Of a DNA stretch of 64,000 bases, positions 2,086 to 62,400 are shown piece by piece. A model generated the notes under the pieces. The model worked only from the letters and a program-made list of their open reading frames with translations. It ran no database searches and had not been told where the DNA came from. The stretch comes from Amoebophrya sp. A120 (Eukaryota; Protista; Dinoflagellata): contig CAJINV010000005.1 of assembly GCA_905178155.1 (NCBI GenBank), forward strand, positions 439,319-503,318, in the 5' to 3' direction. A program made the position numbers and the translations under genes. The first letter of the stretch is position 1; each line of letters begins with the position of its first letter.

Positions 2086-4846
2086 TCACAACCATCTCTC
2101 CAGCATTTTTTCACTGCTTTCCCACAAATAATCCATCATTTCCTCGTCCTGCGCCAGCCTGCTCTGCGTCGCCAACTTACTGTCTCCCACGTAGTGCTTA
2201 TCCAACGAAAAAAGTGCTACAGTTACACATTTGTTGGCAATTCAGCAACACAAATTTTATCTGCATGAGAGAGGAAATTTGCAATGCCGAGATCATAGGG
2301 GAAAACGAGTATGAAACGAGGATCACATGCCTTTCCGGCATGCGAAAGGTAATCACGCTTGCGCGTTCTGCAATACAAGATGTAACTGTAACACTTTTTT
2401 CTTTGCATAGTGCTCGCCGATGATCGGCCTGAGCTCGAACATCGCGTACAGGATCTGGTTCACTGCCGCTTCCTTCGCCGTGATCATCCCGATAAACCGC
2501 AGTGAATAGTGCTGGAAAACCCCAGCGGTGTTGTAGTAGCTCGCTTTGACGTTGTTTCTGCCCTTGTCGGAGAAGATCACGTCCATGAATAACCAGTTGG
2601 AAAGCGGTTGCACCACCTTCCCGAAGAAATTCCCGATCGCGTTCTCGGCAAGCGACCCGGTGTACACCATACCGGGGTGGACGGACACGCTGTGGACGTC
2701 GAGCTTGCGAACCAGGGAGTTGCTGAAGAGATTGTTCATCAACTTTGTGTTACTGTAGGTGTTCCAGTGGAAATCGAGACCAAGTTTGGTTATGTTCAGA
2801 GAAGTACTTGCGGTCTTGTTGGTTGGCTTCTTTTTCGCAAGAATTTGCTGTTCCTGCGTACTATCCGTGCTGTTCTTCTTGTTTTTCACCATTTTACCCG
2901 ACAGCCCGTCCTCCAGTGCTGTGGCGAGGGCGGATTTCTTTTTCGATTTGAAGCCGGGTAGCCTTTATCCAAGAAAAAAAGTGGCACCGTTACACATTTG
3001 TTGTCAATTCACCAACACAAATTTTCTCTGTCTGATAGAGAAATCATGTGCAGCGCTGAGATCATAAGGGAATAAAACACGTATGAAACGAGGCTGTCAT
3101 GCATATCCGGCATGACAGAGCTTGCTTGTATTGCTTGGCCTCCAGCAACACAATGTGTAACTGTAACACTTTCACCTTTCCATAGCTTTCCAAACGCGTG
3201 TAGCAAGGAGCTGACGTGGATAACGCGTCGGAGAACTTTCTTCTGGTTTTTCTTTTCATCCTCCTTCAAAAGCAGTCTCGTGAGCAGGAAAGGCGACAAG
3301 TGGTTGGTCTGAAACTGGAGCTCAAACCCGTCTTTTATCGTAAGGAAAAATCCGCCCTCCCCATATCGAAAAGAAAATTTGTGATGCTGATTTGTCACCA
3401 CAAATCAGCTTTGTCTTGCGCACAAGGCAAACGGCATCCATGTGGCGCATCGTATAGCGAGTCTGTCATGCGTCTTCGTCTATGTCAGACTTGTTTCTCA
3501 TGCTCAGCTGCTAGCCGGATGCGTACCCAAATGGGCTTAGAATATGCCGACAAGCTCTTGCTGCAATACAAAGTTCATTTGTGTACACAAATCCAGCAAC
3601 ACAAATTGTCTTTTGAGTATGGGGTGGGGGCTTTTTTCACCTTGATATCTTTCGTGATTTCCTTCTTCTCCATCCACCCGATGTATTGCAGTGAAAAATG
3701 CCCCCACCCCGGAGTTTGCAGAAGTTTGTCATGCAAAGTTTCCCAATGACAGCTTTTTGTCTTGCATAAAAGGATTGCGAGCGTTTCTGATGCAGAATCA
3801 GGGTGCGCAAGGTGCCTTGTGCATAATAGAGCCGCCTGCTGTTCGGCTATTTCGCAACACAAATTTGATCTATTCAGCATGGAAAATTTGTGATGCTGAG
3901 ATATGCAAGACGGGGAATGTTTCTGTTGGAAAGGTTTGCAATACTGCCAAGCTGGGGGTGGGGGCATTTTTCATTGTAATACGATGCCCGCGTTGTTCAC
4001 TAAAACAACGGCTTTTTTGGACTCCTTGGCCAGTTCCCGGATTTTTTCGTCCGCTTCCTTCACGTATCAAATGCAAAAATGTCTGGGTCTGGAAGGTTGG
4101 AACTTGTCATGCTAACTTCGGACTCTAAGAAACTCTGTATTGCATGACCAGCAAGAGGAGTCTAGTTTGTGCTACGCGGGGAGGGCGTTTGTCATGCGGA
4201 GTAGGCATCAGGAAGCCCTCTAAAAATCTGTGATGCTAGGGCGTGCATTATAGACGTCCTGGGTCATGCAAAACATGCATCACAAGTCTCAGAATCTTCC
4301 AGACCCAGACATTTTTGCATTTGATATCACGGCTTTCAGGGACGACAGGTCGAGGGGTAAGATGTGTGGCTTGGGAACACCAGCACGAGAAGTGGAAGTG
4401 CTTAGGTCGATAGTTGTACTTGTAGCGCTTTGATATTGATGTTCATCTGCATCAAGAGAAGAAGGAGCTTCTCTAGTTTTATTGTTGTACTGGTCGGCCA
4501 AAAGTTGTTCCATTTTCTTCGTGTTCCGCACGGCGAAAACTAGCTGCTTTTCCAACCCCAGGTCCAGCAATTCCACGGCCAGCGCGAACCCGATCCCGGA
4601 GGAGGCGCCGGTCACGACGAAGAGAACATCCTTGTCGATCATTTTTCGCGGGACTTTGTACAAATCTTCCCCCGACAGCAAACCGTAAAATCTGTTCTCG
4701 CCGTTCGTGGCCAGCGGGTGGGGGTGCGGGTAGGTGGTCAGGAAATAGTAAATGCCGTGGCGAAGCTCCTCCGGGACCGCTTTGTAGTACGCGAAGGCAA
4801 GAAACGCCATCGCCATCGGCAAAAGCTTCCACTGACGGTCCTTCAT
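2086..4846 (-). CDS. Short-chain dehydrogenase/reductase (retinol dehydrogenase-like), interrupted by 5 TIR introners
   Basis: After removing each element plus one DR: VVTGASSGIG, LDLSSLKAVKEAD, LVNNAGIG, ITKDGFELQFQTNHL, VIHVSS, YSNTK, VHPGMV and C-terminal AQDEEMMDYLWESSEK; TGA at 2086-2088. Confidence 0.93.
2199..2409. mobile_element. TIR introner, family C
   Basis: TATCCAACGAAAAAAGTGCTACAGTTACA...TGTAACTGTAACACTTTTTTCTTTGCATA; DR GTGCT/GTGCT; removal gives IIGEHYVGDSK. Confidence 0.92.
2966..3184. mobile_element. TIR introner, family C
   Basis: Same TIR and interior as 2199-2409; DR GCCTT/GCTTT (1 mismatch); removal gives AFG(K/R)LPGF. Confidence 0.88.
3336..3647. mobile_element. TIR introner, family B (AAAAATCCCCCCTCCCCATATC-type ends)
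   Basis: DR TCTTT/TCTTT; removal rebuilds ITKDGFELQF. Confidence 0.93.
3684..3981. mobile_element. TIR introner, family B' (TGAAAAATGCCCCCACCCC ends)
   Basis: About 27-bp TIR; DR CGATG/CGATG; removal gives NNAGIGWME; interior closely similar to 47507-47811. Confidence 0.93.
4065..4326. mobile_element. TIR introner, family A (TATCAAATGCAAAAATGTCTGGGTCTGGAAG)
   Basis: Perfect TIR of about 31 bp; DR TCACG/TCACG; removal gives SLKAVKEADEKI. Confidence 0.95.
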
Positions 4847-5370
4847 TTTGATGTTTGTTCTACGGAGTCAACGGTTTTAAGCTCCTGTATCGACTATAAA
4901 GTGCGTGGATAGAAGCAAAACCACGTGGGTTCCTGCGTCCTCGAAAATAAATCTTCAATGGCTCGCGCCCTACTCTAGAAATCTATTGCAGTCGTTTTCA
5001 CGTCACTGCATGTCTTCACAGGAAAGAGAAAAAAAATCGTGCACGAATTTGCACTCCTATTGGTCTTTACAACCCCTTCATTTTCTTCGACGGGCTCTTT
5101 CCGTCTAACCTTCTATATTAAGAGCTCGCGTTCTTTTTTTTCTAAGCCTCTTGTGTGAACCGCCGAGAGCAGGAGAACACGACGAAAGTATCTACAGTAT
5201 GATGAAATGCAGTTGCAGGTAGAAGCAGCAGGGTCCACTTCTCTAGTGCCTCCAGCTGGGCCGCATTCATTCATTTTCATTTTTCTGGGGCCGGCGAGTC
5301 CAACAAATACAACATCAATGTTCCTGCTTGATGTACTTCGGCGGGGGGAAAATTAATATTCTTGCTGGTA

Positions 5371-6403: not shown

Positions 6404-8594
6404 TTACGACCCACCCGCGGCCAGGGTTGCGCGAAAGGGGAGCGGTGCCATGTATGCATTGCAAATATATCCTCTGGGTCTGTCATGCGAAATTTGAAGG
6501 ACAAGGACTTCTAGGAGAACAAGATCAGGAGTGATATGAATACTTACGTGTAGGAGCCAGGTTTGTTGTCGCGCTGAAAGCCAGTTTGTCATGTCCATGT
6601 GCATGACGGATGCATTATCTGCAACAAGCCTGGAAAATAAACAAAAAACTTCTGATGCTGTTATAAACGCCGGACAAGCACAAGCTGTGCTGGCTACATC
6701 AACTCGGCGAAGTAGATGCAAGTACCAGCAGCGAGCACAAGTTTATTCCTCGAGACCCAGATCGAAATTTGCAGTGCATACCATGTAGTCGTCGGCGATG
6801 GGGTCGAGTCCGTGTTGCTTCATGTGTTCCTCCCAGTTGTCGACTGGGACGACCACAGCACTGATCGTGCCACTTGGTCGTTCTTGGTCGCTCTTCTCGT
6901 TCTTGACCAGTGCATGGTTCACTTCCGTTTTCTTTTCTTGGTCCATGGCTTCTCCATCGATGCTGGCTGTATTACTGTTCTCGTTCTTAATAGCTTGATG
7001 AAGGTCATGTTGTCCCGCATTTGGTCGTCAGTATCACAAGAAAAAAGTGCTACAGTGACACATCTATTGCAACTTCAGCAACACAAATTTTCTCTGTGTT
7101 GCAGAGAAAACTTGCGATGCAGAGATCTTCCTAAGGGAAAACACATACGAAACGAAGTTCGGATGCATTTCTTGCATGACAAAGGTTGTCTGTCTTGCGG
7201 CTCCTGCAACACTATGTGTAACTGTAAGTGTAACACTTTTTTCTTGCGATAGTCGGGGTCGTTGGACTAGTACTGCAGTAGAACACAACACCGCCCTTCC
7301 AGTTTGAATTTGATCCTGATCTTCCTGCTTATAATAGGTCTCAAGAATCTGGGCTCCTGCAGATAGCGTGGGACAAAGAGTAGACGCTAGTGATGTCGTA
7401 CTAGGCAATGCACCGAGAACGGGAGATGAAAAAGTAGATGGCTGCTGCTGTTCATGTTCTCCTTGTCCTTCAACACACATCAAACTTGTAGTACCAGTAG
7501 AAGAGGCAACATTCGAGGTAGAAGTTGAAGTAGCGCTGTTGTTCTTTCCTGTACTTTTTTTCTTCTTTTCGGTTTGATGTCCTTTCTTTTCCGAGGTCGC
7601 GCTGCTGTTGCCGCTGTCCTTGCGTTTAATATTTTTCGGTGTAGTTGGGCCAGAACCAGTGTCTTTTTTGGTCGGCTTTTTCGGTTTTTTGTGCAGCTTC
7701 TTGTTCCCCGGTGAGTTGTTGCTTTGCTTCGATGAATTTTTTCGGCTTTTTTTGATGATCTTGCCCACGACCGGAAGAGTGGATGATGCTGATGCGCCGG
7801 CACTGTAAGTTGCTTTCACAGATGGAGATGTAGTTGAAGATGAGCCGTTCATGAGTAAAAAATCTTGTTCACCGTTTGTCGTTTTCAGCATTTTTTCATC
7901 ATCATTTTCCTCCTTCGCTTCCTCCAAGATCCGTCGTTCCGCGGTAGCTTCGGCCTGCAGCGCCGCCTCCCGCTTCCCGCGCGCCCACGAGTTATTGTGA
8001 GGAAAATCAAAAATCCCCCCTCCCCATATCAACTTGGAAATTTGTGATGCTGATTTGTGGCCACCGCCACAAATTATCGGCTTTGTCTTGCAGAAAGTGC
8101 TTGCCGGGTATGCAGAAGGCTAGCAATCAGGTATGGCAAACAGGTTGGCAGTAGTCGAAAGCGCACGACAGACTGGCTGTAGAATGCGCCACAAGGAGGC
8201 TCCCATTACCCCATGATGGGCAAGACAAAGAGGATTTGTGACCCCACATCAGCATCACAAATCTCCTTTTCGATATGCAGAGGAGGGATTTTTTCTTGCA
8301 ATAGGAGTGCGGGCGGAACCAGCTGCACATCGTGGACGGGGAAGCCGTGCTAGATGCGCCAAAAAGATGGCTGAATCGGTCCCGTTCGGGGACGAAAGAC
8401 AGGGTGACCCCCTCGGCGGAGGACTGGATGCAACTCAAGTAGTAGGTCCCGACTTTCAAGCCCCACTGGTCGCTCGGGAGCTTCTCAATGTCGAAAGTGT
8501 GTTTGTCATAGAAGACCTTGGTAAACTTGACGTGAACCACACCACCCATGGAGTGCTGCCACTCGCCTTGCAGGTCGGCGATCTGGGGGTCCAT
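6404..8594 (-). CDS. Hypothetical protein (K/S/T-rich low-complexity middle), 3 introners
   Basis: ORFs 8127..8594, 7064..8032, 6743..6946 and 6404..6721 join in frame after removing the elements (FRPHSWARG; QRPRRPNAG; DDYMAPLPF). The 3' end is uncertain. Confidence 0.7.
6453..6780. mobile_element. Diverged family-A-like TIR introner
   Basis: TATGCATTGCAAAT...TCTGGGTCT / AGACCCAGA...ATTTGCAGTGCATA; DR CCATG/CCATG. Confidence 0.85.
7032..7251. mobile_element. TIR introner, family C
   Basis: TATCACAAGAAAAAAGTG / CACTTTTTTCTTGCGATA; DR GTCAG/GTCGG. Confidence 0.88.
7993..8303. mobile_element. TIR introner, family B
   Basis: Family-B ends; DR CGAGT/GGAGT (synonymous mismatch). Confidence 0.87.
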
Positions 8595-10392: not shown

Positions 10393-13300
10393 TCAGCGCA
10401 AGTGCGCGGGTCCGGGCCCATCCCTTGTGATCATGCTGCCGTAGGAAGCCGCAGTGGTGGAGTAGCTGTTTTTCACCATCTGCGGCTGCTGGTTCGGCCC
10501 CGCCGCGGAACTGGTGTGGTTGAGCTTGTGAAATTGCACGAAGACCCCCGTAATGTCATCCGAGATCTCGTTGTCCGAGTCCGACTATGCATTGCAAAAT
10601 CAATAACAATATCGCAATCGCATTTTTCATACTGAATCTGATTGCAGTACTTATTGCATGACATTGACGGTTCTTGTGGTAGTGATTTCTTCATAGAATC
10701 AGCATTAGAAATTCCATTTACTTCTCGAAGTGAACAATAGTTCTATCAACCTAGACCTGGATTAGTATGTGCCGGATATTAAGAATTTTGCAATACATAC
10801 AGACATCCACTGGTGCCAAGACACCTTGGCCAAGTTCTCCATGCCGACCTGTGCGTCCTCATTCTGTGCGTTCATCGCATGCTGCGCGGCCTCCGGAGCC
10901 TCGAGGAATTCCCACACACCGTCACTGCAAACGAGAAGTCCGATGTCGTCCTGTTTTGTTCATTCGTTGTTTATTCCTCATACGTCGATCTACACAGTGA
11001 GCTGGTCTCGTGCATTTCACACAGAGACAGATCCACAGACTCTGCAGCATCAACACATATAATGCGGAAAACAATCTGAATCTTATCTTTATCATTCATG
11101 CGCATGCCGCTTCGTTTATAGTTTGTTTATTTCATCGTAAAAAATATTACGCTCTGTATCCGGAATTTGCTGACTTCTGCCTCCGCACACAAACCAGCTT
11201 CCCGGTGAGCTATCAAATGTAAAAATGTCTTGGTCTGGAAGGGTTGGAACTTGTGATGCAAACTCTGGAACACACAAAAATTTGTGTTGCATGAGCGCCA
11301 AAAGCTGTCCATTTCTTGGCACGCAAGTAGGAAGTTTCTCATGCGGGACAGGCATCATGAGGCGTGCTCAAAACCTGTGATGCTTTTGCCTGCATCAGAC
11401 GCCACTTGCGTGATCCGAAATATGCATGACAAATCTCAGAATCTTCCAGACCCAGACACTTTTACATTTGATATGAGCCACGCAGTCCCCAAATGCTCTG
11501 CTCATGTTCAAACCCGTATCAGAATGAAAAATCCCCCCTCCCCATATCGAAAACGGAAATTTCTGATGCTGATTTGTGGTCACAAATCATCTTTGTCTTG
11601 CATGCAGGGCCATAGGAGCCATTTGACGCATTCCAGAGCAAGTCTGTCATGCGCATTCGACTACGGCAAACCTGTTTGTGATGCGCAATTGCTAGCCTTC
11701 TACATACCCAAACAGGCTCAGAAAATGCCGCCAAGCACTTGCTGCAAGACAGATCTGATTTGTATACGCAGATCCAGCATCAGAAACTTCGTTTCGATAT
11801 GGGGAGGGGGGATTTTTCATTACGATAACCCGGGTACATTTGACCTTGGTTTTTTAGTTGCTTTTCGTGCGGCAGCGTGACCACGATGTCAAAAGCAAAC
11901 CAAAAATGCCGTGTCAAAAGCAACTGCGAAGCATAACTTCAATTTCATCTTCATCCACGAAAAGCGACACTCTCAAATAAACCAAAAGTCTCATCAGATA
12001 AGTACCTTTCGCGAACACCCTGTGGTTAAAGAAGCCGTCAAACAAAACTCGCCCGCCCCGCTCCTCAATGCGCTTCTTCTCTTCCGCCAAGCTTGGCTTG
12101 TGGTCCCTCGTCAAGTCCCGGCCCGTGTAGGCGCCCTTGCTGGTTCGGGAGACCATCACAGCGCGGCTGTCACCGACGTGGGCAACCTTTGTTTGATGAT
12201 AGTTTAATATGATGGTGGCATTCGCATTTGATGATGGTGTAGTTCTTCTTCCAGCTCCTGCTACACTAGGCCATGCATAAAAACTACAGTTCGATCTGTA
12301 CTACTATCTGTCATTGCATCAGAAGTTCTACTAGCATCGTTGCAAACAAGGCCATTTTCGTGTAGTACATAGATCATCCCTTTTTCTGGTCCCGCGAGGA
12401 TTTGGTAGACTAGGGTGCACGTGGAGCCGCTCATGCCAGCTTGGAGTGTTGCGTGCCGTTCCGCGTGCTCAATAAGTTTTTGGCATTTGGCAAAAGCTGT
12501 TTGGAGGGCCGCTGCCGGATCTGTGATTTGATACATGGGTTGTGTGGTCGGAATATTACTTGAATAAGAATTTCACCTGCTCAACATCAACATGATCCTC
12601 ATCGAATGAAATTTTTCATCATATAAAAAAAGCAAATTTTCATTCGCTGAAAAGAAGAACTAAAAACAGCACAAGCAAACACACAGATTCACCCTTCGCT
12701 CTGTTCGGTTCGTTCAAAAAGAGCTTCGGCAGGGCATCCTTAACGAATTGTGATATGTGGTGCCCTATCAAATGCAAAAATGTCTGGGTCTGGAAACTTG
12801 TGATGCAAGGAAGGCACTAGTGAACTCACTGTAATGCGCTGCCAGGCATGACAAGTTTTTTTCATGGTTCTGAGTTGCGTATTCCGCATGGCATGAGAAA
12901 CTGCATTGTTGCATGACAGGGAGAAGGAGCTCTTCGCGGCCATGCAATACAGAGTTCAGAGTCATGCCCGACTAGCATGACAAATTTCGGAATCTTCCAG
13001 ACCCAGACATTTTTGCATTTGATATGCCCGTGCTGCCCGTGCCCATCGTACACTCCGACAAGAAGAAACTCCTCTGCAACGTAGAGCTGAGAAAAGTTTC
13101 ATAGGAAAAGTGACGTAAGTATCAACAACATCGACGAGTAATTGCATTGCCTTTCGCGAGGAAAAGTAAAGCAGCTTATTATATTGGGTGGGTAGCAATA
13201 GAGTGGAGAAAGAATATGCGAAATAAATTTGTATACCACACTAAAGGCATCCTGATTTGGTGATTCTGGCTTCATGCCCTTTTTGCAGCTTATGCCGATT

Positions 13301-14342
13301 CCCAGCTTGTTCAGCTCTTCCCTGGTTTTCTCGTTCCCTGCCTTGTCTGCTGCGGAACGCTTGTCTGTTTTTATATTTTATTTCCAGTGTTTGTTTTTGA
13401 TATAGCTTTTGCTTATATTTATAGTCCTATGGATGTTGACGAGAAGATCATGGTGACAGCTGTGGTACTAGGTTGCACTTGCAGTTGCAGCCTGACAAAA
13501 ACGTCGATCAAATACTTGGTGACTAAGAGTCGTAAAAATCAAAATCGACTTCTTCTATACCAGAGGAGCTGCTAGCCGCTGGTCCTGCTTGTGTCAATTT
13601 CTCATCGAACGACTTTTGTCCCGTCTGATCCGAATGGAAACTTGACAAGTTCAGCTTTCTCCTGGCTTGCGTTGTTTTCACCAAGTCGCTGGCGTTTGTG
13701 GTTTTCAGAAACTGCATCAAGCCATGGTTTATGAATTGCAAAAATGTCTGGGTCTGGAAGGTTGAAGTTTGTGATGCTAGTTTATTTTGGATTCTAAAAA
13801 AATCTGTATTGCATGATCAGCAAGAGGAGTCTAGTTTGTGCTACGCGGGAAGGGCATTTGTCATGCGGAATAGGCATCAGGAAGCCCTCTAAAGATCTGT
13901 GACGCTAGGTCATGCATTACAGGCATTCTGGGTCATGCAAAACATGCATGACAAACCCGGCAACATTCCCGACTCAGACATTTTTGCATTTGATATGGTT
14001 GTCTGTCGGAGCTGCTGTTGTAGACCCTGTGGAGCTTCGCGCGGCACCGGATTGGCTCGGCCTGGATAATCGAGAATTTGAGGCCGGTTGGTTGTCATGA
14101 ACACAATCAACGAGTAGACAGCACAGGAGCGTCGATATCATCAAATAAAGCAACAGAAAGGAAAAACACATGAAAAATTCTTATTCTGCCAGGAGGTCCT
14201 CAAGAAGGCATTATATGTACTCTTTCTTATCCACCGTGCCCAAGGTTAGCCTCCTTCTTTCGCTGGCTACCCGACGGGTTTTCCTCGGATTTCTGGTCGC
14301 ATCGGACCGACCTCCCGAAGTTGCGAGATACTCCGTCGCCAT
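10393..14342 (-). CDS. Protein phosphatase 2C (PPM family); 5 introners plus several GT-AG introns
   Basis: Motifs SCKKGMKPESPNQD, GVYDGHG, SGSTCT, VAHVGDSRAV, TRDHKP, PGLNMSRAFGD, CSDGVWEF, SDDIT. The start (ATG 14342, MATEYL...RRRLTLG) is inferred; stop TGA at 10393-10395. Confidence 0.9.
10586..10799. mobile_element. Aged introner: only about 14-bp TIR retained
   Basis: TATGCATTGCAAAA / TTTTGCAATACATA; DR CCGAC/CAGAC; removal gives QWMSDSDNEISDDIT. Confidence 0.8.
11211..11473. mobile_element. TIR introner, family A
   Basis: DR TGAGC/TGAGC; removal gives GDCVAHREAGL. Confidence 0.93.
11517..11827. mobile_element. TIR introner, family B
   Basis: DR ACCCG/ACCCG; removal gives MYPGLNMSRAFGD. 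Confidence 0.93.
12766..13024. mobile_element. TIR introner, family A
   Basis: DR TGCCC/TGCCC; removal gives DGHGQHGHHISQFVK. Confidence 0.94.
13730..13995. mobile_element. TIR introner, family A
   Basis: DR TGGTT/TGGTT; interior closely similar to 4065-4326; removal gives PTDNHGLMQF. Confidence 0.93.
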
Positions 14343-15095: not shown

Positions 15096-17809
15096 TCAGG
15101 ATATGCAGCAAGAGCTTTGGTCTTCCACCGAGTACTCGAATTGCAGTGTGCCATTTACCCTCGCGGCAACACATTCCTGAATGTCGACCCAGTCACGCAG
15201 AGTAGCGTTACTCGTGCTCCCCGGCCGGTTCTGTGCGTTTTTCAAGTGTAGCTGCTTGATCTCGTCCTCGCAAAACTCCAAACAGCTCCGCTCGTTCTTG
15301 AACAACATCCCGACCACGGACAGAATCCGCGCCACATTTTCCATCGACCGATGGGCAAGCGAGTATTCCAGCGGACACCACAACACCTCGTGGTTCGCAC
15401 CGTTGTGCAGCAGCAACCGGACCAAATTCGGTTGGCGCCAGCAAACCGCGGCTTGCAAGGGTGTCGGCGCATCGGCCGTGGGAGCAACGGACCCCTCGAT
15501 GTTCGCGTTTAGTTCGAGCAACACTTTTGCCGTCTTTGCCCTCCCGTGGATCACCGCGTTGTGCAGTAGCGTGAAGTTTTTCCGATACCCGAACCGGTCT
15601 TCCGCCGGGTCGCCCCAGGAGCACAGCTGGCCATAGTAGTTGATGTCGGCGCCCTCTCGGAGCCGCGCGACGATCTCTATCAAATGGAAATATGTCGGGG
15701 TCTGGAAGATTCCTACATTTGTCGATGCGTGTCTGGCATGCCTTAAGAATCTGTGATGCAGGAGCACGAAGCGGTCCTCTTTTCTGTCATGCAAAAACGC
15801 AGTTTGCCATGCAGAACACGCAACACATAGGAGCCCAAAAAATTTGTTATGCGTGGTTCCGTATTTTTGCAGTGGAACAAACTCTCATTCACTTTTAGCA
15901 TTACAAGTTTCCAGACCCAGACATATTTGCATTCCATAATCTCCTCGCGACTTCCGTACCAGGTGCCGACGCACTTCCACAGCTTGGCTTGCGGGTGCCC
16001 GTCCTGGCGTATGACAGTGCACAACTCCCCCTTCCCCTCATTTGCATAGCATGAACGGCAATACAAGCATCAATTCAACAAGAGTGCCGGCTTTGCATGA
16101 CAAATTTGCACTGGAGTATAGTGCCACTTGGGCTACCAGAATTTGTCATGCAAACAGTGCCAAGAAGCGAAGGGTGGAATGGGTATTTTGCATGACAAAT
16201 GAGGGGGAGGGGGAGTTGTGCACTTTCATATGGCGCCCGGCTTGCCACTGCCGGACGAGAATCCGCTGCGGGTTTCATCACGAGGAAACATCCCCCCTCC
16301 CCATATCAAAAGTAGGAGGCTTCTGATGCTGGGTTTGCGTATACAGATCGGGTTTGTCTTGCAGTAGAGGGCAGCAGGCTCCTGCCAAGCCTGAGTAGAG
16401 AGCTTTTGGCCTAGGGGCTTAGCATGAAGAACGTCTATGCTGTAGGCCCAGCAGTATCACAAACCGCCCGCATAATGCGGCAGAGCCTGTGGAGTTGTCT
16501 TCTTGCAAGACAGACGTGATTTGTGGTCTCAAATCAGCAAGACAAATTTTCGGAAACACACCTTTTCGATATGGGGAGGGGGGATTTTTCCTCGCAATAG
16601 GTTTCTCGGATCCGCGGTAAGCCCGACCGGGACTAAGGGACCGGTGTACAGGTGCTGCGAATTATTGGTCGCATTGCGATTTGCAGTTCCCCAGGTCGTT
16701 GTAGTACTGGCTCCTCCCGCTCCAGAGCTTGTGGTTACAGAAATCGTTGCGCCAACAGCACCTCCTTGTGTCGCCGGAAGTAAGCTCACCTGCGTTGGAC
16801 TCGCCGCAATTGATGGCCCGGGACCCCCGCTGTGAAGAATGGTTACCTGTGACGCCGGGATCGTTTGCTGAATGGTCATTCCCCCGCCATGATGATGTCC
16901 TAGCAAGTGCGATGGCTGCGGCGGCGGGCTCGGTACTGGCGGCCCGTAGGATGACGGGTAGGCGAAGCTGGGCATCGGATGAGGAGGCCGCCCTGGTACA
17001 CCCGAGCTGGAGCTACTCGATGTTGCCGCCGTCGTGGTCTGGCCGTTTGTCGGCAGATACCGCTGCTGAACTGGCGCTGGAGGCGGTGGCTGTTGTTGAC
17101 CCTGACCCGCTCCCCCCGTGTTGAACAAGTGTTGCGCTAGAGTTTGCAGAAACCCCGGACTTCGCGTCGTCGCCGGTCTGTTCGGCGCAGGGGGAATCGG
17201 TTTCGCGATCCCCTTCTTTTCGCAATAGTCCTCGATGAGGGATCGGACCGCGCGATTGGGTATCAGATTGTTGGGAGAAATCTCTTCTCGCGTGACAGGA
17301 CTACTGGAATGCCCAAGGGAAAACCAGTCTTGGATACTCTGGCGGTCGTACGTCTGCCCGTCCTCCGCCACCACCGGGTCCGCCATCAGTTCGCGGGAAA
17401 TGGGGCACAGAAACTCCGACGGGTGGTCCTCCTCTTCTACTTCATCCGTGGCTTGACGCTCGTCTGAGGCAGCAACCTGCGGTGTAGTTCTACTTGCGGG
17501 CCCCGCGGCGCCCGCGTGTTCTGCCGGAGGCGGCGGAGGAGGTTGTGCCGAGGAGGAGCTAGTTGACGTGGTGGACGCAGGAGGAAACAAGCTAGTACTG
17601 GCAGCACGACCATCATCATGCTGTTGTACTAGTTGTTCGTCTGGTACTAGCAACGGCGGCGCCGACGCGTTTGCGTAGGGGTTGGTCGCGGGGGGACGCT
17701 CGTCAAGATCATCGCAAGTTGTTGACCAGGGGAGCAAAGTCGTTTCCGGAGGAGCTGCGTCGGCCCGGCTGCTCGAACCACTGCTCGACGTTGCTTTGTC
17801 AGGATTCAT
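15096..17809 (-). CDS. U-box and ankyrin-repeat protein (putative E3 ubiquitin ligase), 3 introners
   Basis: U-box PSEFLCPISRELMADPVVAEDGQTYDRQSIQDW...SPVTRE...LIPNRAVRSLI; ankyrin repeats TLLHNAVIHGRAKTAKVLLELNANIE and TPLQAAV...LVRLLLHNGANHE. These join in frame through two micro-exons. Confidence 0.88.
15678..15938. mobile_element. TIR introner, family A
   Basis: DR ATCTC/ATCTC; removal gives SREEIVARLREGAD. Confidence 0.92.
16010..16230. mobile_element. TIR introner, family D
   Basis: TATGACAGTGCACAACTCCCCCTTCCCCTCATTTG / CAAATGAGGGGGAGGGGGAGTTGTGCACTTTCATA; DR TGGCG/TGGCG. Confidence 0.92.
16276..16599. mobile_element. TIR introner, family B (left end CA instead of TA)
   Basis: DR GGTTT/GGTTT; removal gives DPRNPQRILV. 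Confidence 0.9.
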
Positions 17810-48100: not shown

Positions 48101-48882
48101 AGGTTGTCGTTGACCAAGCGCGTGCAGTCGCCCTTGATATTCACCCCAACTTTCAGAATGTTGTCGTCCTCGAGAATCCGCTTCAGCGACGGCGGAAACT
48201 TCAAAAAGTGCTTCAGGTGGAAAAGCTTCACCTGAAAATGTTGTTAACAAGTTGCAGTTTCATAAGATTTTTGAGAACAAATAAAATCCAACAGCTGGTT
48301 TGCAACAAATAAGGACGAGAGCATCTTCGCGAGTCTTATCCTGGTGCACAACAAGATGGATCCAATGACTCGTCCTCCAGACTAGTGATGTTGTACTCGC
48401 AGTCGTATAGTAAGTACTTGCATTTTCCGCTGTAACGAGGCGTGTGAGGGTATCAGTTGTAGTGGCCAGCTATCCCTTGCGAGCGGGCTCTTATCTTCGT
48501 AGGCCAATTGGAGCAACGCGACTTTTGATCGGTGGTTTTTCCTGTACGACATATTCCACTCCGCGTCTACGCCCACGAGGGAAACCTTTTCTCGTAAAAT
48601 CTTCTTGCAAATCTCCTCTGCGTCGAGCGCGCAAGTCACGTACTGGCACCGCCCGGAAAACCTGAACGTATTTTGCATTCGGGAAGGTTGTGGCCGTGGG
48701 GGGCTTGTGCTTGTGGAGGAGGAAGTAGAACTACTCGATGAAGACGAAGTCGATCTCGAGCTGCGCGTCGTCGTGCTTGCTGCACCACTGGCAGCAAGCT
48801 TTGCGGCTGCCCGGGTGCTGGAAGAGGTGAGGCGGGAGGTCGTCACCTGGAGTACCGGGAAAGACCGGTGAAACCGAACCAT
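45143..48882 (-). CDS. WRN/EXD2-like DEDDy 3'-5' exonuclease with C-terminal helix-turn-helix; 2 introners plus GT-AG introns
   Basis: VGVDAEW, KVALLQLA, LKRILEDDNILKVGVNIKGD and SDWENLPLTNVQQVYAATDA motifs; HTH-like TLEEVGSELNLKPQTVQSYV. Both ends are inferred. Confidence 0.85.
47507..47811. mobile_element. TIR introner, family B'
   Basis: DR CTCAA/CCCAA; homologous to 3684-3981. Confidence 0.9.
47850..48101. mobile_element. TIR introner, family I
   Basis: TATAACCTGCTCAGGTGTTACAGTGTCAAACGTTACAATAG / CTATTGCAACGTTTGAGATTGTAACGTTTGAGCAAGCCATA; DR GGTTG/GGTTG. Confidence 0.92.
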
Positions 48883-53400: not shown

Positions 53401-56400
53401 TGATCATCCTTTTTGTTACCTCTAGATGAAGTACCGCCTCCACCGCGTGATTGTGATTGGGGATTATTACCTTCCTTGTTGTTCCCAGATGATGAATGAT
53501 GAGAATTATTTCCGTAGTTGTTCTCTTTAGACGAGTTCCGTGATCCACCTCCACCCTTCATACTGTGGAGTTCCATCATGTCGTGGTATTTCCCACCATA
53601 CCCGCCTCCTGCGCCCATCTTTCCCTTCACCATCATCATGTGCTCCCACTCCGCCTTTCCCATCGGCCCACCCCAGCTCCCTGGGGGGCCCCAGGAAGAG
53701 GGGCCTCCACCCGGCGGGCCGCCTTTCATCATATGATCGCCTCCTTTGCTCATCATGTGGTGCTCGGACCAAGAACCTTTCGCAGCCATCATGTCCGGTG
53801 GTACAAAAGGACCCACACCTCGTTGTTCACCACCTCCGTAGGGACCACCTCCCGCTATCCAAGAACTCTTGCCACTCCCGCCACCATCCATCTTCCCCCA
53901 AGCAGGTCGATCCGGGCCGGTGAGAGGTCGGTCTTTCCCGCCGTTATGCGGGTTCATCCAGTTGTCACTGTACATACCCCCCTTAAGCGGGTCGCCGAAC
54001 GAGTTGTGATGAGAACCGCCACCTCTTGCCCCCATGATATTGCCAAACGGTACTCCCGGGCTGCGATCGTCGTTGTAGCTACTGCCCCTCATGTTTCTGT
54101 CACGGCTGCGGCGCTGATGGTTGTCGTTGTAGTTGCTTCCACCTCGATTGCTGTGCATGTTGCTATTCCCTCCATTCCCTCGGCCCCCGCCACCTCCGCG
54201 GAGGTGATCACGTTCGTGATTGCGGCCGCGATGGTAATTGTCACCACGGTCTTGCATATTGTAGTTGTTTCGATGACTGCCATAGTTGATGTCGTAGTTC
54301 CGCGGTGTCGCGATGCTGCAATCCCTTGCAGCTTTCCCCTCCAGCTGATCGAAACCCACCGGTTCGTTTTGATGTGGTCTTTTGTAGCCCCCGCCTCCTG
54401 CTTTCGGTGTGTAGTTCGTACCGCCGGACCGGTGGCGATTTTGGGCTCCGGTTGTGGAGCGGTGGGTGTTATTATTTACCCCCGCGTGACGCCCGGAATG
54501 ATCGTCGTTTTGGTGGTGGCCGCCTCGACCGCCGCGGTGGTCACCACGATGATGATTGTGATTTTCACGATCGCGGTGTTCACGGTCACGGTTGTTGGCT
54601 CCATGTGGTCCAGCACCTCCACGGTCGCGGTCGTGACCATAATTATCATCCTGGTTGCTGTAATTTCTTCCGCCTCTAGAACTATCGTGATGACGGCCAC
54701 GGCCGCTGTGGTCGTTATGTGCTGAATGTAGTTGCCCATGTTGCCCACCTGTCGAAGTGCCGCCTTGTCCTGCTCCCCTCGCCAATCCACCATGGTCACT
54801 GTAGTTGTAACTATCATCATTCAGGCCATTCGCATTGTTCCCGCGACTCAAGTCGTGTCGGCCTGACCGGCTGCCGCTCCGAAGATGACTGCTGTTGTTC
54901 ATCATCGTCCCACGATCTTCCGAGCGGTTGGTCGCTGACCCAGAAGGTGGGCCTACACTTCTACCGGTTGTTGGCGTTGGTCCATATAGCAACTCATGGT
55001 ACGTATGAACTGCAAAAGTATCGTATTCGTATAATTGCATTACAAATCTCCTCAGCATGAGAAAGAAAATTTGTAATGCTGATTTACCCCCACAAAAAGA
55101 TTTGTAATGCATGATTGCAATACGAATACGATACTTTTGCACAGGATAGTACGAGATTCCCACCGGCGGTTGCCGAATAGCGTGTGGTGCGCCGGGACTG
55201 CTCTGTGCGCCGGGGCCGGAAAGACGTACACCAGAGTTACTTTTAGGGTTGATATTGCCAACATTACCACCTCCGCTGCTCGAAGTAGTTGTGCCTCCAC
55301 CTCCGCCGAATAAGTGCGCCAATGCCTGGTTCACTACAGCTGGATCCGCCGCGGGCGGAGCACCAGCGTTAGTACCCCCGCCATTCGTCAGCATCAAATC
55401 GATGGTCTTGAAGAAATCTCCATCGTCTGCCTTTTTCGCTGGTTTCGGAGCCCACTTTCGACTTCTCCCGTTATTTCCGGAGTCGTCATTAGATTCCGGA
55501 GACCCGGACCCCGCATAATTGTTGTTGGCATGATCAAAAGAGCCCCCGGAACTGTTTGCCAGATGGTAATTATTGTTTATCGCCATACCTCCGGAAGCAG
55601 AGGAACTATTCGAGCCTGTTCCACCTCCTGCTTCTCCCAGCAGCTGCAAAGCGTTCATGGTTTGCGGAGCAACTCTACTTTCTCGCTCGGCTTTCGCTGG
55701 AGAGGGGGGCTTCGAGGACTCATTCCGCGTCACGGTTAACCCTGCCAGTTGCAAAATGGTGTCCACGTCACTCGCGGAAGCGTTTGCCATGCTGCCGCCC
55801 GAGGAGGTTTGATGTTGTGCGGGCTTGGTGATAGTACTTGCTTCTGGTTTATTCTGCAAGCTGAAATTATCCTGGTTGTTCGGAGGAACTATCGTAGCGG
55901 AACAATTCGCAGGTATCGTCGAACACACGACACCTGCAGGTGGTGGCACAACCAGAGCAGCAGTCGCCGCTTGCGTGACCTTCTGCAGCTCCTCCGCGAC
56001 CCGCATGCGCTCCTTCTCCTCCTGCCTTCTGACCACCTCGTCGTGGTAATTCAAGTACGGGAGCAGCAGGCCTTGCAGGTAATTGGAGAAGTCATTGGGG
56101 GTGAGGATTTCCCGCAGCGCCGCCGAGGTGGGGGAGACAATACGGCGGAGAAACTCCGCAGGGCTGGCTTCCATGAAATTATTGTTGTCCACAAAACAAA
56201 CCCGCAAACAGCTGTTTTTCGTCCGCGTCAAACTGACGTCTAACTTTCCAAACCGGTGCGCCCCATGGGGGCTCCGCGTCCAGGGGAGTGGAAGCGGCCA
56301 CTGCTCAATCACCTTCTCAAATTGGTCCGCGTCCTCCGCGCCGGCCTCTTGCTGGATCTTCTGAGGTGTAATTATGTTTTTGATGTTTCACGATGTACTG

Positions 56401-59400
56401 TGTGTTCTTTGTTGAAGCATGAAGTAGATCTTCTGCACGATAGAGCGCTCTACAAACGAAACATCGATATTAAATAAAGAATAAATAACTCCAGTGCTGT
56501 TGCTGTAAACAAAGAAATCGATACGTTCTTCCCGGGGGTTGTTCCAATGTCGAAGTTTTTCGTTGCTTCGTCAACTTTCGGATCGCTCGGCTTCACCATG
56601 AAGAAGCACACCTCGCACACGTCCTGGAAGTGCAACCGGAGAATTTCTGCAATCGTCTGCGCCCGCAGGATCGGGGGGTTTGGTAGCCGCAACGCTTTCA
56701 ACACTTCCCGGCGGAAAGCCGGCTGGTGCAAGGACCGCCACGACAGAAACACGTGGTCCACGGTATTACTATTTTGCTGTTGGCCCCCGCCCCCGCTCAT
56801 GCAAGAACTGCCGCCTCCTTCCCCGTGATGCAGAGAGCCGCCACTGGTCCCCCCCGGCGTGCTGCTTTGCTCCATCGGCGAGTTGCCGTTCTGTCCCTGC
56901 ACGTGGTTCCGCTTGTTTTCCACGTGGTTCGGCACGGAAAAGCACCGGATCCGGTGAAACGCCGCTCGCAACGCGCCGGCCTGCCCTTTGCGGGTGGAGA
57001 AATTGGGGTCTTCGGTTTTCTTCTGCAACTCGATCGCCGCATTGTAGTTGTCGAGGAACATCTTGTTCTTCATGTTCCGGGCGTTTTGCAGCCAGCCGGT
57101 CATGATCATCCCGTGCCCCGCGGCCATGAAGTACTGGGCCTGCAGGGCTTCGACCGACTGCATAATGGAACCGAGAGGACCTATTATTTTGTGATTTTTG
57201 GAAAGAAATAAAAAAAACGCAACGTGAGCGAAGAAGCTCAAAAACGCGACGCGAATGAAATAATGAAAACAAAATCGACAAAAATTTCTACTTCATGTGT
57301 GAAACAAGATGTCGTCCAACAGAAGTACTTAATTGCAAGAACTACGTGGCACAGGAGGAGCTGCCGGAAAAGTTTTATCAGTACTCTTCTCCGCATCCTG
57401 ATTTTTGAAACTCATCGCCTGGATATTCTGCAGCTGTTCGGCGATGCTGGAGATGTGCTCGAGCACCAGTGCCAAGTGCAGCAAAAAGTGCTCTATGACC
57501 TGCTCAAGCGTTACAATCTCAAACGTTACAATAGAGTCTGGAATTTGTGTTGCATGATGGGCATGACAGACTCGCACAGCGTTCCACCTTTTGCAATACA
57601 AATTTCGACAGAATGCAGTGGGGTTTGGAGCTCCGGAACTTGTCATGCGCAACCCTATGAGAGTTGGCTGGATCATGCTCATCATGCAAGACAAATCTCA
57701 GATTCTATTGTAACGCTTGAGATTGTAACGCCTGAGCGGGTTATATGCTCCTTCGCCGTCTTTTGGGAGTTCTGGACCGTGAAGCGGAGCATGTCCGACT
57801 GGAGATGGGAAAACAAGTTATCATTCAGCTGCTGCAGTGCAGCCCTGTGCAGGCCAACGTCCTCCGCGTCAAAAACCTGTAGGGTTTTTGTTTCATCTTG
57901 TACGAAAGGACAATCATCCTCGCGTGTTGACTTCCTTCCTGAACTTGCACTCTGCAAAGCTGACGAGAAAGAACCTCGACCCAACAAGCGCACAATGACA
58001 TTGAACATGAAGTATGGGTAGTTCTTCTTGTGCTGAAAAAATAACAATATTTATAGTTTAGTAAATACCGACTTTCCCTCGTGCGACACGAGAAACGCGC
58101 AATCGGGGCGGTAAATTGTCGTGGGTACTTTGACCGCCCGCTGCTTGCTAATCTCTCGCTGGCTCCGCGGGAGCTCGCCCCGGAGTGCTTTCATCAGCCG
58201 CCGTTCTGCGTTCAGCCAAATTCGGTTCAAGTCTTCTTCCAGCCAGGACTGGAGTCTGTCGCCCAGATTCTTCAACAACTCCGTGGCGTACTCGGTGCAT
58301 TTCGGAAACTTCCGAATCAGCAAATTCGTGTCCAGAAACCGGTCCGCCTTGTGCAACAACGTTTCGTAGAACTTCCTCTCCAAATCCACGTCTTGAAGAT
58401 TGTCCTTCTTCTTGTTTTCGACCACGGAAGCATTTGCAGTATTCGGCTTGTTCGTGGTGTTGCTGTTCATCCTGGCCGCGTCCGGGCTGGCGAGAAACTT
58501 CTCCAGGTCGTGGTCTTCGTCCTTCTTGTCTAACTCGGAAATTCTTTTGTTGCGCAGGAAAATTTCCCGCTCCTTGCTGTAGATGCTAAGAGCGTGTAAA
58601 CAGAGCTCGTCGTCTAGAATGAGCTTCTCCAGTTTCTTCCGTTTGTTTGTACTATGCTGTTCTTGTGCGCCGGCTTGGTGTTTGTTGGCATTGTCTTTGT
58701 TCTCTTTCTTCTCCGCTGCGGCTGCTGAAACAAGAACGTCCTGGCTGTCAGTCCCGAACATCGGGGAGTCAAGGTCCTCAAAGTCATACTCGTCTTCGTC
58801 CTCCGAACTGTGGTCTGGGTCTTCCACCTCGACGACGCTCGGGCCGCTCTCGTGGCTCTTCACAGTAGAAGTCGCCTGCGGTTGTACAGCGAAAGCAACA
58901 TGCGCGTCGGTTTTAACATTGCTGTCCATAGCTGGTGCACCAGCAGTTGTAGTTTCCCCTACTTTATTAATTTCCGCCGTGTTCTCTGCGTCGGTCGTCC
59001 CAAAAATCATGCTTTCCTCGTCATGCTGATTCGCGTCATCTTCCGGTGCGCTTGATGCTTGTTTCATTTCCACGTCTGCCTGCCCATCATGATCTGCACC
59101 AAGAACCGTAGTACCGCCGTAATAATCCTGTGCATCATCAAAATCCAACAGATTCCGCGTTTTATTCCTCTGCATCTCTTCGGATGTTGACTTTCTCATT
59201 TGATGTTCCACTGTCGTTGTTTCATTTGTTCCGCTGTGCGCCGAAAGAAGTGGATGACTCGCTGCAACTTGATGTTGCAGCTGGTGGGTCCTCGTCTGAT
59301 GTTGACCACGATGTACTTGGTCAAGACTGCTTATCACCGGGGAGGATGTCTTTGAATAAATCTTCTGAACTGGTGGAGCAACTTTCTTCGCTTCTCCGAC

Positions 59401-62400
59401 AGAAATATTTTCCGACACTTTTACTTCCGGCGGGCCGCATTTCCTCCCCTTCTTGTTGCTGGTCAAAACGATCTTCCCTTGTTTCCTCGGTTTGGCAAAG
59501 TGAATCGCGGTCGAGGCGTTTTCGATCATGTCGATCGCCTCGATTTATGCATTGCAAATATGTCTGGGTCTGGAGGGATGCAACTTGTGATGCTAAATCT
59601 GAATCATGCAAAAATCTGTGTTGCATGAGTACGAAAAGCTGTCCTCTTTCGACCAAGTTGCGGGGGAGTTTCTCATGCGGGATAGGCATGATAGAGACCT
59701 CACAGAACCTGTCACGCTAGGTTCCACATTCCAGACCTCATGGGTCATGGAAAACCTGCATGACAAACCTTGCATCCTTCCAGACCCAGACATTTTTGAA
59801 TTTGATACGATTATTTTCCGCTTCGCCCCCTGCTCCCGCGTTTCGTTTGGGGCTAATTCGAGCAGGGCATCGAGAGCTTCGACCGAGGAAGTCATGATGT
59901 CTCTTTGAGGATTGATGTTCATCGTTGTGTAGGCGTTGGCGTGAAAATTTTGATTTTCTGGCGGTACTACCAGCATCTGCCCCAAAGGGGATTGTTTGAA
60001 CGACGCGGACATAATGGACGCGGGCGGAGGAACCCCTGCTGCTTTGGAGGTAGACACGAGGTAGGGCTGCTTCTGCTGCTGGGGGACACAAGAAACTGGT
60101 GGCACAACAGCAGTGGCCGCTCCTGTGTGGTTCGTCGCGGCCGCCGCGGGTGAAAAATTCGGGGACTGTCTACCCGGTAGCAGCTGCAGCGGTTTTTTCT
60201 TTGGCTTTACTGGGGCCAGCACGGGATTCTGTAGTTGAATCGTTTCCAGGGGAGATGGGGCGGCGGAAAAACCGGATTGAGCATGTTGTGGATTGAAAGA
60301 GGAGTAATCGACGGTCCTTCCTGACGGCGACCGGGACTGGCCTTGCTGTTGAGCCGCCTTATTTTGTAGGTCGACGCTCGACGAAGGTGTGCAACTAGAT
60401 GAGCAGGCACTATTAATATTCACTGCACGACCGTCTTCTTGTTGCTCATGGAAGAGGTTCATCGTCGTCCTGGCCGCGCCCGCGGGCTGGTCTTCTCTAA
60501 CATGCTGTCCATGTTGAACATGATGAAGAGCGAAATCGGGCGAACTGTTGTTTGACGCTTCGTCCGACGCGGAAAAGCCGCTTTTGCCCAAGGGTCGGGT
60601 CGTGTTGTGGTCCTCCATAGTTTTTTTTGCGTTTGAGTTCTTGAACGCATTGCTGTCAGCGCACATCGTCGACGAGGAAAGGACCTCCGGGGTTTTCAAA
60701 GCTTGGTCGACTATCTCGGTGGTAGTAGTGGTAGCTCCCTGGAGGAGGTTCATGTCGTGGTTTTCAGCTTCAGGAGCAAGTACCACTTTATTGTCTGCAT
60801 CTGCTGCGGCCGCCATATTAGTGTTCGTCCCCGTAGGTAATACCGTACAAGCGCTGGTGCTCGAGAATTTTGCACCTACTTCCTCAGGCGAGGACAAGAA
60901 CTTCATCGCAGCAGCACCAGTCCTCCCGTCTGCAGTGACAGTGGCCTCGCTGATGTCGCATTCCAAAAGCGTCGGTGCATTTTTATTGAAAGTTTTTACG
61001 GTACTGGCCGCGTCGGCTGCGGCTTCAGCTTCTTGTTCACCGCTAGTACTACAGGACGCCATGGGCTCCTCCGTAGACGACCATGTCGGCTGCAGTGGCG
61101 TGTCTGCGGTCCAGGTTCCAGACGGCAAATTTTCCACATCTTGCACCGCCTTGCTGCAACTTGTTTCCGTGGCGACTTCACAAGAACTGGTCCGCTGTCC
61201 AGGTACCTCGTCCGCACACGACACCTGTTCATCGCGTTCTTGCCCGCTGCTCGCAGAAGTCTCCAAACCCGTCGTCTTCTCCGAAGGGCAAGGGCACGGA
61301 GCATGGCAAGCTCCATTGCCAATCGCAGTAGATCCAGCAGGAGCCAGAGCGACCTTCAGAGAAAATGACAGGAAAGAAGATTATTCGATTAGTACTGGTT
61401 GTTGTTCATCATCCATTTTTTCCATTTGGGGTACTGCTACCCCTTTTCTTGCACGACCACCTTCAACATCAGTCGACTGCAACTATTTTTCACTGCATCA
61501 GCATCAGCAGGAGATCTTCGATTCTTCCTGGCTGGACGACCGCACAACGGTGTCTCCACCAGGCGCTGCCGGGTTATATTTCTGTCGGCGCCCAAATGAA
61601 CCTACAGCCTGGCGACTGGAGATGAAGCTCTGGTGCGCACTGTGCCAAAAAGAAGCGCAAAACATGTCGATGGTGGAATACAAAACAGTTCTTTATCATC
61701 ATTGTCACACAAAAAATTTCCAAAAAGATTACCTCCGCAGCTCCCGAAGTCAAAACAAAGTCCTCTGAAGGCAAAGCCTCAGCATTATTTGCATCTTCCA
61801 CGTTAACGCTCCCCGGGGAAAATGTTGAGACTTTAGGTGCTGTGTCATTGGTAGTTACGCAGTTTGGAAATAATTTGTGCGATGCAGACTCGTCTGTAGT
61901 CAGCAACGTCCTCGATTCTTCCCTCTCTCCAGCCGCAACCTCGTTCGCCGCTTTGTTCGCAAATAGGATTTCCGCCGCCGCGGGCGGCTCTGACCAGGAA
62001 ATTGCCGATCGCTCAGGACTCGTGTTAAGAGACGGGTCCGCGGAGGAGGGGGCGGTACCGGCTATTTCTATTTGTGTAGCTTCCCCGCCGGCTTCGGCTG
62101 CAAGCAAGTGCGGGTCTCGTTCTGCAGTAGTTGCCGTCGTCACGTTATCGATCCCGGAGTTAATACTCGAGTCCTGGTTGTTTTCACCCTCCTTATTCTC
62201 TTCATGTTGGTCTTCACTGACACAACACTGAGACTTCTCGGTCGTCGAGTTTTTGGGAGGCTGCTCAGCATCAGGGGACTGTTGAGCAACGACAGCGTCT
62301 TGCTCTTCATCTTCCTGCGCAGCATCTGGAGCTGCATTCCCGAGGACTGCTCTGGGAGATGATGTCGCCCGTGCTTCTGGTGCGGCACCAGGTTGTTGAG

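Follow-up and report, generated by a model that had tools for sequence, protein, structure and literature searches.

The closest described relatives of the sequences analysed here are the introner elements of the dinoflagellate Amoebophrya sp. A120, which lives in the sea as a parasite of algae. Passages of Farhat 2021 (PMC7789003) give the inverted repeats of A120 introners as TAT, seven variable bases and AAA, with direct repeats (DRs) of 3-5 nt (a 5-bp example is in Fig. S19) and an intron border marked as unknown; they also report RNA-supported non-canonical introns and a resemblance to miniature inverted-repeat transposable elements (MITEs). We analysed a 64,000-nucleotide stretch of the A120 genome (contig CAJINV010000005.1, positions 439,319 to 503,318; hereafter the window) that holds 35 elements with terminal inverted repeats (TIRs) and flanking DRs. 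One window exon is 100% identical over 550 amino acids to an Amoebophrya sp. A120 protein. As the element ends match the published A120 motif, the elements are the published A120 introner elements, and the system is already known. The original prediction, which called the phenomenon partly described in Amoebophrya, drew the right link and overstated the novelty, since these are the published introners of this same genome. What is new here is that imperfect repeats place the cut by which the elements leave the transcript.

Like the A120 introners of PMC7789003, as described in the passages cited above, the window elements have TAT + 7 nt + AAA ends and border DRs, are repeated, and are removed without GT-AG. 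Unlike that account, in which DR length and position are variable, the window elements all have a 5-bp DR abutting TA; our analysis further adds one cut register, an NUAY donor and a subterminal motif common to families. In the part of the Gozashti 2025 supplement (PMC12130899) that concerns A120, family 38 is annotated 'Ginger; 5-bp TSD, TA/TA Termini' (TSD, target-site duplication), with open reading frames (ORFs) homologous to Copia/Gypsy sequences. The term '5-bp TSD' appears once in supplement file 8, and the others among 22 of its 58 A120 rows give automated TSD lengths of 2-5 and mixed splice sites. Unlike those rows, the present work proposes a register and a mechanism.

Two further systems are similar, as outlined in parts of the papers cited. 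In euglenid nonconventional introns (PMC12501133, PMC11282704), as here, a terminal stem joins the ends and the border is blurred by DRs; their rule was worked out from introns that cannot slide, and their 3' overhang is longer than the 5' one, as it is here. Unlike the Euglena introns, which have CAG at about +4 to +6 and CTG at -8 to -6 and are released as circles, the elements have a stem running from +2 to -5, and their 5' motif matches the spliceosomal donor of the host itself. The composition of the element ends shows no CAG/CTG motif at +4 to +6 / -8 to -6. The non-canonical introns of Fritillaria borealis (PMC11282704) are likewise MITE-derived, with TIR and TSD, and their removal by a changed U2 spliceosome has been reported; unlike those introns, which prefer AG-AC and AG-AT ends, the elements have a free acceptor dinucleotide. 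A literature search, with figures and subscription papers outside its scope, found no publication that locates the cut or describes the NUAY donor. By a term look-up, neither the Roy preprint nor PMC12501133 has a main-text passage on Amoebophrya, and the PMC9860276 supplement names Amoebophrya only in a genome-list row.

Removal of the elements from RNA

Inverted-repeat and 5-bp-DR scans, together with a BLAST search of the window with the first 30 elements, recovered 35 elements across 2199-59807, which occupy 14% of the window. A strict scan alone found 30, compared with a mean of 0.17 (maximum 2) in 100 dinucleotide shuffles. The prediction had proposed 35 elements of up to 328 bp, in about 11 TIR families, all in coding sequence, with TA at both ends save for three variants and with 29 perfect 5-bp repeats. 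The number was recovered exactly, as were the end and repeat counts: TA closes both ends in 32/35 (the variants at 16276, 28751 and 29434 all lie at the transcript 3' end), and a 5-bp DR abuts the TA in 35/35, perfectly so in 29/35. The measured lengths are 121-329 bp, and BLAST clustering bears out multiple families but divides them into 12 or 13. At the transcript 5' end, 35/35 elements read TA(T/C), 33 of them TAT, and A occupies TIR positions 11, 12 and 13 in 29, 29 and 33 elements.

Removing each element plus 5 nt leaves a stop-free minus-strand frame at each junction (17 to ~1950 codons on either side) and, as predicted, rebuilds three motifs that are absent from the unspliced sequence: TKDGFELQFQTNHL and NNAGIG in an SDR gene and PGLNMSRAFGD in a PP2C gene. 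The prediction also held that sliding the junction gives no general GT-AG solution, and in fact 0/35 elements yield GT-AG at any register and one yields GC-AG at some register. As a control the frame is weak, because removing 2, 5 or 8 extra bases scores 28, 28 and 27 of 35; the precision of removal thus rests on RNA joints and not on frames.

Those joints come from runs X3-X6, which represent one sample of one study and whose RNA status is a guess. Their contigs were aligned to 28250-48200, and region 2050-22000, where repeat-to-repeat joints of run X1 crowd a table of 1601 rows, was read from 16 contig pieces only. The 15 joints in 28250-48200 comprise seven that skip exactly an element plus 5 nt, seven that remove ordinary GT-AG introns and one inside element 47850 (elements are named here by their first coordinate). 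The exact skip was seen at 7/10 elements in this region, the remaining three (28351, 29434 and 29755) having no joint, and none of the 15 joints leaves a scar, just as had been predicted for transcripts. The odd joint lies on contigs with loose ends on both sides and likely represents another copy elsewhere. At 47849-47964, some contigs of runs X4-X6 derive from a related family-E copy located elsewhere, with an internal difference of 67 nt. In region 2050-22000, one X3 contig joins 7988 to 8305 (311+5), and a second is exactly the 257 nt expected between four removed elements.

The prediction left open whether removal occurs at the RNA or the DNA level. In 28250-48200 the contigs that lack the elements also lack ordinary GT-AG introns, and since the same contigs lack both kinds of intron, they represent mRNA. 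In contrast to this, run X1, which is DNA-like, has a flat depth of ~27-30 over introns and spacers, and its unbroken contigs cross elements 6453 and 10586 at a depth of 27-28, like that of element-free bins; X1 is possibly the source of the window itself and does not count as independent. We conclude that the elements stay in the DNA and are removed post-transcriptionally, as element plus 5 nt and without a scar, so that the RNA half of the predicted alternative stands and the DNA half does not. Elimination from a somatic or stage-specific genome, as with the internal eliminated sequences of ciliates, would suit the TA-bounded ends and could draw on the guessed RNA nature of X3-X6. It is very improbable and largely refuted by the mRNA character of the joined contigs, by the unbroken X1 contigs, which retain the elements where ciliate-type sequences should be absent from bulk somatic DNA, and by a 5'/3' asymmetry, described below, that tracks the transcribed strand. 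No back-joints occur among the 15 joints of 28250-48200, though contigs are not expected to hold full-length circles. In the raw RNA runs X9 and X10, reads were found only at a few element ends (142 and 3 reads). About 140 reads of X9 fall on element end 4065-4115 with a different flank, and so come from a same-family copy elsewhere that was unspliced in that sample.

Position of the cut within the direct repeat

A perfect repeat hides the junction, whereas a mismatched repeat shows which copy each retained base came from. We define k as the number of repeat bases retained from the upstream copy, with mismatch positions counted on the transcript. For an element a..b, the DRs lie at a-5..a-1 and b+1..b+5, and the inferred intron is a-4..b+1. 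The elements and the control introns are as follows, with the means of detection (scan or BLAST) where recorded.

2199..2409, minus strand: introner, family A, SDR gene; perfect DR; scan; run X3 piece starts 2408
2966..3184, minus strand: introner, family A, SDR gene; DR mismatch position 3 (k at least 3); BLAST; X3 record 9 piece ends 2958, indirect
3336..3647, minus strand: introner, family B, SDR gene, splits TKDGFELQFQTNHL; perfect DR; scan; X3 record 9 length of 257 nt fits
3684..3981, minus strand: introner, family B2, SDR gene, splits NNAGIG region; perfect DR; scan; X3 record 9 length
4065..4326, minus strand: introner, family C, SDR gene; perfect DR; scan; X3 piece starts 4327
6453..6780, minus strand: introner, singleton; perfect DR; scan; X3 piece ends 6447; whole in X1 contig 6032-7080
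7032..7251, minus strand: introner, family A; DR mismatch position 2; scan; no joint seen
7993..8303, minus strand: introner, family B; DR mismatch position 5 (k at most 4); BLAST; X3 record 11 joins 7988 to 8305
10586..10799, minus strand: introner, singleton, PP2C gene; DR mismatch position 4 (k at least 4); X3 record 12 piece ends 10580, indirect; whole in X1 contig 8036-11240
11211..11473, minus strand: introner, family C, PP2C gene; perfect DR; scan
11517..11827, minus strand: introner, family B, PP2C gene, splits PGLNMSRAFGD; perfect DR; scan
12766..13024, minus strand: introner, family C; perfect DR; scan
13730..13995, minus strand: introner, family C; perfect DR; scan
15678..15938, minus strand: introner, family C, U-box/ankyrin gene; perfect DR; scan; X3 piece ends 15672
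16010..16230, minus strand: introner, singleton; perfect DR; scan
16276..16599, minus strand: introner, family B, 3' end variant ATG; perfect DR; BLAST
18560..18680, minus strand: introner, singleton, shortest (121 bp); perfect DR; scan
19792..20120, minus strand: introner, family B, longest (329 bp); perfect DR; scan
20194..20455, minus strand: introner, family C; perfect DR; scan
20538..20816, minus strand: introner, family C; perfect DR; scan
20962..21240, minus strand: introner, family D; perfect DR; scan
21274..21527, minus strand: introner, family C; perfect DR; scan
28351..28585, minus strand: introner, singleton; perfect DR; scan; no joint
28751..29026, minus strand: introner, family C, 3' end variant ATG; DR mismatches positions 1 and 5 (k from 1 to 4); joint 28746->29028, run X5 only, depth 2.3
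29434..29694, minus strand: introner, family C, 3' end variant ATC; perfect DR; BLAST; no joint
29755..30062, minus strand: introner, singleton; perfect DR; scan; no joint
33076..33354, minus strand: introner, family D, MFS transporter gene; perfect DR; joint 33070->33355 in 4/4 runs
33400..33667, minus strand: introner, family C, MFS transporter gene; perfect DR; joint 33394->33668 in 4/4 runs
40035..40298, minus strand: introner, family C; perfect DR; joint 40029->40299 in 3/4 runs
40400..40653, minus strand: introner, family C, 5' end TAC; perfect DR; joint 40393->40653 in 4/4 runs
47507..47811, minus strand: introner, family B2, 3'-5' exonuclease gene, 5' end TAC; DR mismatch position 4 (k at least 4); joint 47500->47811 (two shared letters) in 4/4 runs
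47850..48101, minus strand: introner, family E; perfect DR; joint 47843->48101 in 4/4 runs
55004..55148, minus strand: introner, singleton or loose family B; perfect DR; scan
57494..57745, minus strand: introner, family E; perfect DR; scan
59546..59807, minus strand: introner, family C; perfect DR; scan
33909-34106, 34385-34592, 34767-34885, 43075-43219, 43824-44003, 45377-45575 and 47226-47412, minus strand: ordinary GT-AG introns (controls); donors GTA(T/C) in 7/7

In region 2050-22000, the direct X3 joint at 7993 requires k of at most 4, and piece ends, under left-aligned joints, require at least 3 at 2966 and at least 4 at 10586. The value k=4 and two predictions were fixed before the joints of 28250-48200 were read. 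There, joint 28746->29028 confines k to 1-4, and joint 47500->47811 requires at least 4 in four runs, in agreement with a residue of protein P0001. Two further points come from a set of 144 loci (L001-L144), which belong to a metagenome assembly containing a related strain. This strain has 90% protein identity to A120 and shares its element families, with up to 97% identity between them. In locus L016, two imperfect repeats match the A120 orthologue only with k of at least 4 and at most 4, respectively; the exonic copy was inferred from orthologue conservation, and these points were not fixed beforehand. The seven informative junctions (five from RNA, two from the orthologue) share one register only, k=4. 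We conclude that the cut likely has one fixed register, with the 5' cut 1 nt before TA and the 3' cut 4 nt after TA. The cut is inside the repeat and not at the TA edge, a point that the original prediction missed.

Several observations weigh against a fixed register. Only seven junctions are informative, and a set of seven random registers has P=0.16 of agreeing on some single value (P=0.31 for the five RNA-only junctions), which makes the register evidence moderate. Elements 2966 and 10586 were read from piece ends only, their partner pieces not being displayed; the joint at 28746->29028 is on one contig at depth 2.3; both L016 points rest on an orthologue residue and not on RNA; and every RNA run is from one sample of one study. 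Repeat mismatches are 3.0x commoner at third codon positions (38/565 vs 23/1030 at first and second positions). This excess, compared with the maximum of 2 that a free intronic copy allows (P=0.075), may reflect mixed registers.

If both cuts instead slid together inside the repeat, removal would still be scarless and at the RNA level, and the seven junctions would agree by chance. The chance fit of 0.16 and the excess of synonymous mismatches lend themselves to such a sliding register, as do passages of PMC7789003 that call splice sites variable relative to the hairpin and Table S4 of that paper, where A at -2 in 8/9 predominant A120 motifs would fit k=1. We nevertheless consider sliding improbable, given that 7/7 junctions fit one register, that chance alone would let all four later tests succeed with P ~0.06 (4/6 x 2/6 x 2/6 x 5/6), and that the 5'/3' asymmetry points to defined positions. 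The published variability would itself be expected from aligner placement in perfect repeats. The same Table S4 has T at +2 in 9/9 predominant A120 motifs, which fits k=4 and is not counted as independent because aligners favour such placements.

Other comparisons did not discriminate. No homologue was found for a register test at locus L049, and at L031 the two informative sites are both occupied by a third residue in homologues P0005 and P0006. No register creates a stop in the imperfect repeats examined, and the 79 DR mismatches show no directional pattern toward G+1 or AG.

The host genes of the window (SDR, PP2C, U-box/ankyrin, RING, MFS transporter and 3'-5' exonuclease) were named by Pfam, except PP2C, which was named by its quoted motif. 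All lie on the minus strand, in agreement with the unidirectional gene clusters reported for Amoebophrya. Intergenic arrays of a 10-bp tandem repeat (CAACCCTCCG) lie at 5527-5793.

Intron ends and the removal machinery

To extend the analysis of the ends, we combined the window with the related-strain loci, of which 134 (673,938 bp) remained after contained ones were dropped. From 435 high-confidence elements kept, 394 were oriented by codon usage alone and 392 remained after two nested false calls were removed; with the 35 window elements, this gave 427. As the loci were pulled with the TIR of one family, that family is over-represented. Repeats are perfect in 350/427, and the two copies are 0.95-0.97 identical over five positions (partly by construction), falling to background just outside, with no extension beyond 5. 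Unpaired TIR ends also occur in the loci, where other repeat lengths are possible. Repeat composition resembles the exon background, with a weak symmetric G/C preference around the site.

At k=4, the intron 5' end reads N-U-A-U/C in 35/35 window elements, and the canonical donors shown by RNA read G-U-A-U/C in 7/7. Among introns predicted with only GT and AG forced, 80/194 begin GTAT or GTAC, with nothing conserved past +4; the finder is noisy, placing 3/7 known introns exactly and one more with the right donor. Provided that k=4 holds, the element UAY at +2 to +4 thus matches the host GUAY consensus with +1 free, and the register derived from RNA sets the invariant end of the transposon on the host donor consensus. 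The acceptor dinucleotide is arbitrary, all 16 being found. A 320-nt predicted intron in locus L013 is a worn family-C element whose k=4 ends are GT-AG, so that it passes as canonical. In Table S4 of PMC7789003, the nine predominant motifs of strain A25 all begin TT, with varied acceptors; the A25 inverted repeat given in that paper begins TTA, which would also give U+2 and A+3.

The end variants follow the transcribed strand, whereas DNA transposition should treat both ends alike. Across the 427 elements, the opening T varies once and its mirror base 13 times (P=0.002), the sole opening-T variant making a GC donor at k=4. At the third base there are 14 variants, 12 of them to C, compared with two at its mirror A (P=0.004), while A+3 varies 2 vs 7, which is not significant. 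TIR positions 11-13, used as a control, show no strand bias (A>G vs T>C, 19 vs 15). From this asymmetry, the identities retained are U+2, A+3 and the A at -7, the last of which has two variants in 427 elements.

We judge it moderately probable that a relaxed spliceosome, guided by the predicted terminal stem, removes element plus 5 nt at one fixed register. The element would supply +2 to +4 of a donor N-U-A-Y through its TA(T/C), with +1 free and taken from the target. The stem, with a predicted mean pairing probability of 0.68-0.90 over TIR positions 1-20, would join the ends and take the place of intron definition. Distance, and not AG, would set the 3' cut, counted either from the stem or from a branch adenosine within the closing ATA, whose first A, conserved at -7, is a candidate branch point. 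According to passages of Farhat 2021 (PMC7789003), nearly all spliceosomal proteins are found in Amoebophrya, without U1 small nuclear RNA and snRNP27, and Parker 2023, in the part that bears on this point, associates SNRNP27K loss with +4U donors in yeasts. More tentatively, as a possibility we rate somewhat short of even, the spliceosome has dropped G+1 and the 3' AG and reads U+2, A+3 and Y+4 together with a transposon-supplied branch A, the stem measuring the 3' cut, with transposase and spliceosome geometrically matched.

The lack of signals that ordinary second-step docking would need speaks against a spliceosome. G at +1 is not enriched (134/427 vs 28% background), nor is AG (31/427 vs 6.7%); the two ends of U2-type introns, GT(GC) or G+1 with AG, combine in 11/427 at k=4, about the 10 expected by chance; and there is no clear +1/-1 pairing (P=0.052). 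A further point against it is that A at -7 is not fixed in predicted canonical introns (34/80, from the noisy finder). This lack of G+1, AG and +1/-1 signals would fit a separate, non-spliceosomal machine, either a structure-specific endonuclease with a ligase or a Euglena-type pathway, that used the stem as a ruler at the same fixed register in RNA. So would the predicted pairing of the stem up to its terminal bases (0.77-0.86 at positions 1-3), which a spliceosome must melt, and so would the Euglena nonconventional introns, which parts of the papers cited above describe as stem-defined and excised as circles, with other factors proposed. We consider such a machine unlikely, as it accounts neither for the exact coincidence of TA(T/C) with canonical +2 to +4, nor for the tolerance of T>C at +4 (GUAC being a host donor) but not of A>G at the mirror A, nor for the GC donor given by the sole opening-T variant. 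The original prediction of a transposon-derived, target-agnostic system that reverses insertions scarlessly therefore keeps its transposon origin, its target-agnostic insertion and its scarless outcome; a separate system is less likely than a relaxed spliceosome, because the 5' end matches host donor positions +2 to +4 at k=4.

Phase is skewed in the 319 locus elements (154/92/73), with phase 0 in 154/319 (48%) at k=4 or k=1. As the weak symmetric G/C target preference could cause this excess, we do not count it as evidence. An Rfam search of the window gave no match.

Transposon features and implications

Inside elements, the motif TGTNNTGC has a density of 8.3 per kb and its complement one of 7.6 per kb, vs 0.6 and 0.3 outside, and TGTNNTGC is present in 316/319 locus elements. 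It faces mostly inward from both ends, with peaks ~33, 43, 64, 73 and 105 bases from each end. In the window and the loci, it is common to unrelated TIR families and has a ~31-bp spacing. From its sequence distribution, TGTNNTGC probably marks subterminal binding sites of one transposase type serving all families. The elements have the features of Ginger-like MITEs, namely TIRs, a constant 5-bp TSD and TA/TA termini, as in A120 family 38, and the annotation of that family makes an integrase-like enzyme a lead for the transposase. The window and 144 loci yielded no autonomous element and only two longer TIR pairs (631 and 972 bp, longest ORF 85-86 amino acids). These pairs, L039:3862-4492 (631 bp) and L058:10790-11761 (972 bp), belong to family C, with perfect 5-bp repeats and extra internal sequence, and are possibly nested insertions. 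In an empty-site comparison, none of the loci was orthologous to the window, and protein homologues were collinear across the junctions.

In the mechanism we propose, one transposase type would read TAT-N5-(G)N-AAA ends together with the shared subterminal TGTNNTGC, insert almost anywhere and duplicate 5 bp. As the 1+4 register adds up to the 5-bp duplication, removal would be scarless at any target and in either orientation.

If the more tentative reading above is true, in which the spliceosome has dropped G+1 and the 3' AG, any insertion, in either orientation, would be a perfect intron, with tens of thousands in the A120 genome. With a fixed 1+4 register, 'no splice signature' gives way to a rule that is testable on existing raw RNA reads, predicts a branch point and the bases to mutate, and would mend gene models of A120 and its relatives. 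If removal is spliceosomal, the elements would form a large natural intron class with free +1 and free acceptor, which bears on 3' site docking and on how transposons turn into harmless introns.

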